A stretch of 64,000 nucleotides of DNA from Escherichia coli. Its GTDB lineage: Bacteria > Pseudomonadota > Gammaproteobacteria > Enterobacterales > Enterobacteriaceae. The position numbers were made by a program. Of this stretch, positions 26,871 through 29,800 are shown one piece after another. Where the stretch lies: the NCBI RefSeq assembly GCF_041886205.1, contig NZ_CP169029.1; one strand, given 5' to 3'. Position 1 is the first letter of the stretch. Each line of letters opens with the position of its first letter.

Positions 26871-29800
26871 TACGGGGAGCATTTGTAGGCCTGATAAGAC
26901 GCGGCAAGCGTCGCATCAGGCATTGGCGCGGCCAAACATCAACCTCACTTATTCTGCGTGTGCAGCATATAGTTCACATCCACGCCGGGGCCGAGCTTAA
27001 AGGAATTAGTGATCGGGTTGTAATGTAGCCCGGTTATATGTCGCTCTTTAAGGCTTGTCTGATCTACCCAGCCAAGCAGCTCTGCCGGTTTAATAAACTT
27101 CTTCACATCATGCGTGCCTTTGGGCACCATGCGCAAAATATATTCCGCGCCAACCACCGCCATCAGCCATGACTTGCCGTTGCGGTTAAGCGTCGAGAAA
27201 AAGACATCGCCGCCTGGTTTCACCAGTTGCGCACAGGCTCTGACCACTGACTGCGGATCGGGTACGTGCTCCAGCATCTCCATGCAGGTCACCACATCAT
27301 ACTGCCCGGCATGTTTTGCCGCGTGCTCTTCCACGGTTTCCTGCACGTAATCCACCTGAATGCCGCTTTCCAGTGCGTGCAGTTTTGCCACCTGCAATGG
27401 CTCAAAGCCCATATCCAGACCGGTCACCGTCGCGCCTTCCCGCGCCATGCTCTCGGCCAGAATGCCGCCGCCACAACCGACATCGAGCACCTTTTTGCCA
27501 AATAAACCGCCAGCACGCTCGGCAATATAGCCCAGACGCAGCGGGTTAATGCGGTGCAGCGGTTTGAACTCACCTTCAAGATCCCACCAGCGGGAGGCGA
27601 CGGCTTCAAATTTAGCGATCTCTTCGTGGTCTACGTTATGGTTTACCGGCGATTTTTCGGCATTCATTGGCACTTCTACTCCGTAATTGGCAAGACAAAC
27701 GAGTATATCAGGCATTGGAGGTGAATAAAGCGTATAGGTTTACCTCAATCTGCGCGGCTGTGTTATAATTTGCGACCTTTGAATCCGGGATACAGTAGAG
27801 GGATAGCGGTTAGATGAGCGACCTTGCGAGAGAAATTACACCGGTCAACATTGAGGAAGAGCTGAAGAGCTCCTATCTGGATTATGCGATGTCGGTCATT
27901 GTTGGCCGTGCGCTGCCGGATGTCCGAGATGGCCTGAAGCCGGTACACCGTCGCGTACTTTACGCCATGAACGTACTAGGCAATGACTGGAACAAAGCCT
28001 ATAAAAAATCTGCCCGTGTCGTTGGTGACGTAATCGGTAAATACCATCCCCATGGTGACTCGGCGGTTTATGACACGATCGTCCGTATGGCGCAGCCATT
28101 CTCGCTGCGTTACATGCTGGTAGACGGTCAGGGTAACTTCGGTTCCATCGACGGCGACTCTGCGGCGGCAATGCGTTATACGGAAATCCGTCTGGCGAAA
28201 ATTGCCCATGAACTGATGGCCGATCTCGAAAAAGAGACGGTCGATTTCGTTGATAACTATGACGGCACGGAAAAAATTCCGGACGTCATGCCAACCAAAA
28301 TTCCTAACCTGCTGGTGAACGGTTCTTCCGGTATTGCCGTAGGTATGGCAACCAACATCCCGCCGCACAACCTGACGGAAGTCATCAACGGTTGTCTGGC
28401 GTATATCGATGATGAAGACATCAGCATTGAAGGGCTGATGGAACACATCCCGGGGCCGGACTTCCCGACGGCGGCAATCATTAACGGTCGTCGCGGTATT
28501 GAAGAAGCTTACCGTACCGGTCGCGGCAAGGTGTATATCCGCGCTCGCGCAGAAGTGGAAGTTGACGCCAAAACCGGTCGTGAAACCATTATCGTCCACG
28601 AAATTCCGTATCAGGTAAACAAAGCGCGCCTGATCGAGAAGATTGCGGAACTGGTAAAAGAAAAACGCGTGGAAGGCATCAGCGCGCTGCGTGACGAGTC
28701 TGACAAAGACGGTATGCGCATCGTGATTGAAGTGAAACGCGATGCGGTCGGTGAAGTTGTGCTTAACAACCTCTACTCCCAGACCCAGTTGCAGGTTTCT
28801 TTCGGTATCAACATGGTGGCATTGCACCATGGTCAGCCGAAGATCATGAACCTGAAAGACATCATCGCGGCGTTTGTTCGTCACCGCCGTGAAGTGGTGA
28901 CCCGTCGTACTATTTTCGAACTGCGTAAAGCTCGCGATCGTGCTCATATCCTTGAAGCATTAGCCGTGGCGCTGGCGAACATCGACCCGATCATCGAACT
29001 GATCCGTCATGCGCCGACGCCTGCAGAAGCGAAAACTGCGCTGGTTGCTAATCCGTGGCAGCTGGGCAACGTTGCCGCCATGTTGGAACGTGCTGGCGAC
29101 GATGCTGCGCGTCCGGAATGGCTGGAGCCAGAGTTCGGCGTGCGTGATGGTCTGTACTACCTGACCGAACAGCAAGCTCAGGCGATTCTGGATCTGCGTT
29201 TGCAGAAACTGACCGGCCTTGAGCACGAAAAACTGCTCGACGAATACAAAGAGCTGCTGGATCAGATCGCGGAACTGTTGCGTATTCTTGGTAGCGCCGA
29301 TCGTCTGATGGAAGTGATCCGCGAAGAGCTGGAGCTGGTTCGTGAACAGTTCGGTGACAAACGTCGTACTGAAATCACCGCCAACAGCGCAGACATCAAC
29401 CTGGAAGATCTGATCACCCAGGAAGATGTGGTCGTGACGCTCTCTCACCAGGGCTACGTTAAATATCAGCCGCTTTCTGAATACGAAGCGCAGCGTCGTG
29501 GCGGGAAAGGTAAATCTGCCGCACGTATTAAAGAAGAAGACTTTATCGACCGACTGCTGGTGGCGAACACGCACGACCATATTCTGTGCTTCTCCAGCCG
29601 TGGTCGCGTCTATTCGATGAAAGTTTACCAGTTGCCGGAAGCCACTCGTGGCGCGCGCGGTCGTCCGATCGTCAACCTGCTGCCGCTGGAGCAGGACGAA
29701 CGTATCACCGCGATCCTGCCGGTGACCGAGTTTGAAGAAGGCGTGAAAGTCTTCATGGCGACCGCTAACGGTACTGTGAAGAAAACCGTCCTCACCGAAT

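Follow-up and report, generated by a model that had tools for sequence, protein, structure and literature searches.

Quinolones act by binding the gyrase-DNA cleavage complex, in which the C3/C4 keto-acid of the drug chelates a Mg2+ ion whose waters hydrogen bond with Ser83 and Asp87 of GyrA; in E. coli gyrase both residues serve as anchors of this water-metal-ion bridge, the main role of which is to position the drug (PMC9917921). Ciprofloxacin induces far less cleavage with enzymes carrying S83L or D87N, and practically none with the double mutant (PMC9917921). The region determining quinolone resistance (QRDR) has been set at residues 67-106, and its most frequent sites of mutation are positions 83 and 87 (PMC11323783). 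The closest described relatives of the protein considered here are GyrA of E. coli K-12 MG1655 (b2231, NP_416734.1) and the solved E. coli GyrA structures PDB 6rks, 1ab4 and 3nuh.

Here we describe gyrA and its surroundings in a 64-kb stretch of an E. coli genome (contig NZ_CP169029.1, 64,000 nucleotides), referred to throughout as the window. The gene is intact and its QRDR is wild type, including Ser83 and Asp87, from which a quinolone-sensitive gyrase would be expected.

Identity and integrity of gyrA

The coding sequence of DNA gyrase subunit A lies at 27814-30441 on the plus strand of the window (875 codons plus TAA). It runs from the ATG at 27814 to the TAA at 30439-30441, and there are no internal stops within its 2628 nt. 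The ORF passes the cutoffs of both gyrA equivalog models of NCBIfam, scoring 1309.7 bits with TIGR01063 (cutoff 877) and 1258.7 bits with NF004043 (cutoff 902). Screening with Pfam placed the type IIA breakage-reunion domain (PF00521, DNA_topoisoIV) across GyrA residues 32-507, with an E-value of 6.7e-163, and found six C-terminal PF03989 (DNA_gyraseA_C) repeats, as in a six-bladed beta-pinwheel. Read from the ORF, codon 122 (TAT; 28177-28179, plus strand) encodes an intact Tyr122, the catalytic residue for DNA cleavage-religation. Furthermore, the GyrA box, QRRGGKG, was located in the translation at residues 560-566 of the C-terminal domain (29491-29511, plus strand); this motif separates gyrase from the ParC subunit of topoisomerase IV. 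The alignment with chain A of PDB 6rks, a full-length E. coli GyrA, is gapless from 1-875 against 1-875, and 874 of the 875 residues are the same.

The gene occupies its normal chromosomal position between ubiG and yfaA. Gene order in this part of the window is yfaL (plus), ubiG (minus), gyrA (plus), yfaA, yfaT, an alpha-2-macroglobulin gene, yfaQ, yfaP and rcsC, and the surroundings of gyrA are collinear with K-12, in the opposite orientation. On its model scores, domains, GyrA box, length and synteny, the ORF is gyrA.

Promoter, terminator and opposite strand

The sequence TGTTATAAT at 27761-27769 (plus strand), picked out by eye and the same in K-12, is likely to be the extended -10 of the gyrA promoter, and we presume it to be the element described in the gyrA promoter literature. 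The gyrA promoter escaped a sigma-70 consensus scan, whose sole match lies within the coding sequence (28250-28277), with a match count below shuffle expectation. The scan passed over TGTTATAAT for want of a good -35 hexamer. Within the gyrA-ubiG intergenic region, the 146 nt 5' of the ATG show two substitutions relative to K-12, T>G at 27720 (ATG-94) and A>T at 27749 (ATG-65), both upstream of the putative -10, which is unchanged. At the other end of the gene, 20 nt past the stop codon, a putative terminator-like hairpin at 30461-30478 (plus strand) matches the consensus and has a weak T-tail. No RNA family was found at or near gyrA with Rfam. On the opposite strand, long antisense ORFs are nested in gyrA at 27976-28947, 28960-29580 and 29625-30050 (all minus).

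The quinolone-resistance-determining region

Counted from the ATG at 27814, codon 81 occupies 28054-28056, codon 83 is TCG (28060-28062, plus strand), encoding the wild-type Ser, and codon 87 is GAC (28072-28074, plus strand), encoding the wild-type Asp. Codons 81-88 (28054-28077, plus strand) read GGT GAC TCG GCG GTT TAT GAC ACG, or G-D-S-A-V-Y-D-T. A preliminary description of this DNA had given codons 81-87 as G-D-S-A-V-Y-D, and re-translation returned the same reading, with the frame and numbering right. The span attached to that reading, 28054-28077, is correctly located, but its 24 nt comprise eight codons, extending to Thr88 (ACG), and not the seven listed. Alignment to the reference sequences (K-12 gyrA and PDB 6rks) gave the same length, no indels and agreeing numbering. 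As the description had also stated, S83L and D87N/G/Y are absent, codon 83 being TCG (Ser) and codon 87 GAC (Asp). Its view that the genotype call can be read directly from the window is likewise correct, yet the call is a routine one.

Across the whole QRDR (codons 67-106; 28012-28131, plus strand) the protein is identical to that of K-12; three silent changes are present, V85 GTC>GTT, R91 CGC>CGT and Y100 TAT>TAC, and there are no amino-acid changes. The resistance-associated positions A51, A67, G81, D82, S83, A84, D87, Q106, A119, A196 and R237 are all in the reference state; four of them (A51, A119, A196, R237) fall outside the QRDR and have at times been connected with resistance. With Ser83 and Asp87 in place, no substitution between residues 67 and 106 and the gene uninterrupted, the QRDR is wild type. 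Single substitutions in the TCG of codon 83 can give Leu, Trp or Ala, C>T at 28061 producing S83L; in the GAC of codon 87, G>A, G>T and G>C at 28072 give N, Y and H, respectively, and A>G at 28073 gives G. One substitution at base 28061, 28072 or 28073 would therefore alter the genotype call. Since codons 81-88 belong to a conserved coding segment, chance occurrence is not the relevant question for them.

Two other readings of the ORF and its QRDR segment were weighed. Were the ORF the paralogue parC, or the A subunit of another type IIA topoisomerase, the Ser83/Asp87 numbering would be wrong. ParC does have the same N-terminal fold, and it appeared among strong partial matches in the profile search; however, the ORF remains under the curated cutoff of the parC_Gneg model TIGR01062 (581.5 bits against 628.9) and above the cutoffs of both gyrA equivalog models. 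Moreover, it has the full length of 875 aa and a GyrA box, is 100% identical in nucleotide sequence to annotated gyrA and shares the synteny of the K-12 gyrA locus. Misassignment was ruled out on the model cutoffs, GyrA box, length and synteny, and the probability that we would still attach to it is negligible. The QRDR segment would instead be dual-coding if the antisense ORF at 27976-28947 (minus strand), which overlaps it, were a real gene. This is a long open frame of 323 aa; against it, the ORF is unannotated in the genomes compared, and its translation is of low complexity, as is usual for a shadow ORF. Dual coding was rejected on the seven nucleotide differences from K-12 within the interval, all seven of which change the antisense protein and none of which changes GyrA; the frame is a shadow ORF, and dual coding is extremely improbable. 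The segment is thus best read as the QRDR of gyrA, coding on the plus strand.

Differences from K-12 and the D678E polymorphism

K-12 gyrA and the gene in the window differ at 34 nucleotides (98.71% identity), 33 of which are silent, with the remaining one producing D678E. Codon 678 is GAA (Glu; 29845-29847, plus strand), the sole amino-acid difference from K-12 GyrA, and this is also the sole residue that differs from the GyrA of PDB 6rks. Of 5,426 complete E. coli genomes, 1,360 (25%), O157:H7 included, have the exact 30-mer with GAA (E678), and 3,649 have that with GAC (D678). In clinical series D678E goes with certain sequence types, whether or not S83L/D87N is also present (PMC10638923). 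We read it as a neutral lineage marker, a widespread and common natural polymorphism, and consider it very unlikely to have any effect.

Silent changes relative to K-12 are concentrated in the 3' third of gyrA, at about 29600-30200 in the window, and D678E sits inside this cluster. Gene nucleotides 1801-2200 hold 14 of the 34 differences, with 0-4 per 200 nt elsewhere. Such a 3' cluster fits a mosaic or recombinant history of the allele.

Genotype frequencies among complete E. coli genomes

QRDR genotypes were counted by exact 30-mers over codons 80-89 in 5,426 complete E. coli genomes, using Megablast with a 28-base exact word, so that every match was exact across codons 81-88. In this collection, which is skewed to clinical and resistant isolates such that the shares describe the database and not nature, the wild type accounts for 2,652 genomes (48.9%; 2,013 with GTT and 639 with GTC at Val85), S83L together with D87N for 1,702 (31.4%; 1,371 GTT and 331 GTC), S83L alone for 485 (8.9%; 413 GTT and 72 GTC) and other or unclassified genotypes for 587 (10.8%). 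The window's own 30-mer over codons 80-89 was matched in 2,013 of the 5,426 genomes, a single time in each and always within annotated gyrA. The first-step target-site mutation, found in about half of complete E. coli genomes, is absent here. In one plasmid-labelled record there is a full-length gyrA that has the 30-mers for S83L+D87N (GTT) and for D678; the replicon has probably been mislabelled or misassembled.

Relatives of the window

The complete E. coli genomes VE-T9, XJ5.2, 6EVA and wlxctx60 all have a gyrA that is 100% identical at the nucleotide level to that of the window, and strains wlxctx60, MB53 and PT62 have the RefSeq protein WP_001281251.1 as their GyrA. Identity of at least 99% over gyrA is seen in only 33 of 5,425 genomes, and over 25 kb around gyrA in only nine, the next best reaching 96.7%. 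By these counts, few complete E. coli genomes belong to the lineage. The markers used for lineage or phylogroup typing lie outside the window. When the full 64 kb was compared with wlxctx60, isolated from bear faeces in Japan, 12 positions differed and there were no indels. As the 64 kb is not identical to wlxctx60, the window probably represents a sister isolate within that lineage.

Other features of the 64-kb window

Several differences from K-12 were observed away from gyrA. At 39868-40065, between yfaP and rcsC, the window lacks the ato operon (atoSCDAEB; about 7.4 kb, at 2319953-2327366 in K-12); the yfaP-rcsC gap in wlxctx60 is about 0.27 kb. The glpQ-inaA interval, at about 13828-17664, holds about 3.8 kb that is extra relative to K-12 and contains a hypothetical gene with a frameshift, a LysR-family regulator that is intact and an MFS transporter. 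Of the regulator, K-12 retains only a remnant, the yfaH pseudogene, which matches over 253 nt at 92.5%. At about 32922-37436 lies yfaS, of the alpha-2-macroglobulin family, which is annotated as intact (4515 nt) in a near-identical genome and is a pseudogene in K-12. The segment from nrdA through yfaP (19995-39867, including the yfaA-yfaP cluster) is about 97.0% identical to K-12, and no other long block of the window diverges as far. In the eco-mqo intergenic region (54976-55079), K-12 is about 460 bp longer (2304501-2304961), and the window shows a short duplicated or overlapping alignment junction; the difference in length probably represents REP-element copy-number variation. Furthermore, Rfam detected the MicF sRNA upstream of ompC (46841-46934, minus strand; 116.8 bits) and two tandem naRNA4 elements, REP-derived and nucleoid-associated, just downstream of rcsC (42991-43067 and 43105-43181, both plus strand).

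Predicted quinolone response

Codons 81-88 fall within helix alpha-4 in the DNA-gate region of GyrA, which is the quinolone docking site. There, the water-metal-ion bridge to Ser83 and Asp87 would place the drug in the cleaved-DNA complex beside Tyr122. With both anchors and all other QRDR residues intact, the gyrase is predicted to be fully quinolone-sensitive, and the strain has not taken the first, usually obligatory step to chromosomal fluoroquinolone resistance. From the two intact anchors we therefore infer a quinolone-sensitive enzyme in this strain, and nothing in the sequence contradicts the wild-type reading. An intact gyrA with wild-type quinolone anchors, a sensitive gyrase and a neutral D678E is, as a joint explanation, almost certainly correct.

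A sensitive enzyme does not by itself settle the response of the strain, a reservation that the preliminary description made in part. Wild-type gyrA excludes the main chromosomal target-site route but does not prove fluoroquinolone susceptibility, because parC, parE, gyrB, the efflux regulators and plasmid genes are located outside the window; in the gene lists for the 64 kb, none of parC, parE, gyrB, marR, acrR, soxR or plasmid sequence is present. The strain could thus still be non-susceptible, or show reduced susceptibility, through plasmid-borne qnr, aac(6')-Ib-cr, qepA or oqxAB, through efflux up-regulated via marR, acrR or soxR, or through changes in gyrB. These candidate loci all lie outside the window, so nothing within it excludes them, and the 'ctx' in the strain name of the nearest complete genome is, going by the name only, a possible hint of isolation on cefotaxime. 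Cefotaxime-selected isolates often carry plasmids. On the other side, ompC, an entry route for quinolones, is annotated as intact in a near-identical genome, and clinically relevant resistance in E. coli normally requires gyrA QRDR mutations (PMC9917921; PMC11323783). On balance, non-susceptibility or reduced susceptibility of this origin appears unlikely. A different possibility lies within the gene itself, that D678E alters the quinolone response or supercoiling and the allele is not functionally wild type. D678E was listed among GyrA changes absent from the ResFinder database after enrofloxacin exposure of a single strain, with no functional proof (PMC11721436), and it has often been reported together with S83L/D87N in resistant clones (PMC10638923). 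However, in a pan-genome study the allele with D678E as its only change from K-12 came from 152 susceptible genomes and 1 resistant genome (PMC7067475), and the presence of GAA at codon 678 in a quarter of complete genomes, O157:H7 among them, is as expected of a lineage marker. Residue 678 is part of the DNA-wrapping C-terminal domain (the beta-pinwheel), far from the drug pocket, and Asp to Glu is a conservative change. D678E as a resistance determinant, a candidate prompted by the enrofloxacin report, was accordingly dropped on the pan-genome counts and the 25% genome presence, and an altered response is hardly to be expected. Population data weigh heavily against this rare-lineage gyrA allele having any effect on resistance. 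Likewise, it is highly doubtful that D678E and the 3' silent cluster together subtly shift the supercoiling set-point or the quinolone response, making the allele something other than K-12-equivalent. A wild-type, quinolone-sensitive gyrase thus remains the preferred reading.

Comparison with known systems

The call made here belongs to known biology: it is a routine genotype call on a housekeeping gene, new in neither structure nor mechanism, and one that PointFinder, AMRFinderPlus and similar surveillance pipelines give routinely. Like K-12 MG1655 gyrA, the gene in the window encodes 875 aa and is aligned without indels; the QRDR protein sequence, Tyr122 and the GyrA box are identical in the two, and both are flanked by ubiG and yfaA. 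The S83L+D87N alleles of 1,702 genomes differ from it in having, besides S83L, AAC at codon 87, where the window has GAC. Closer at hand are LHM10-1 (pig, China) and CP52E (human, Thailand), whose gyrA shares 2626 of 2628 nt with that of the window. Their two differences are C248T, which corresponds to base 28061 of the window and converts TCG to TTG (S83L), and one silent change; the encoded protein, WP_001281220.1, is the resistant S83L allele. The window thus carries, in its susceptible form, an allele that in close relatives has already become resistant by mutation.
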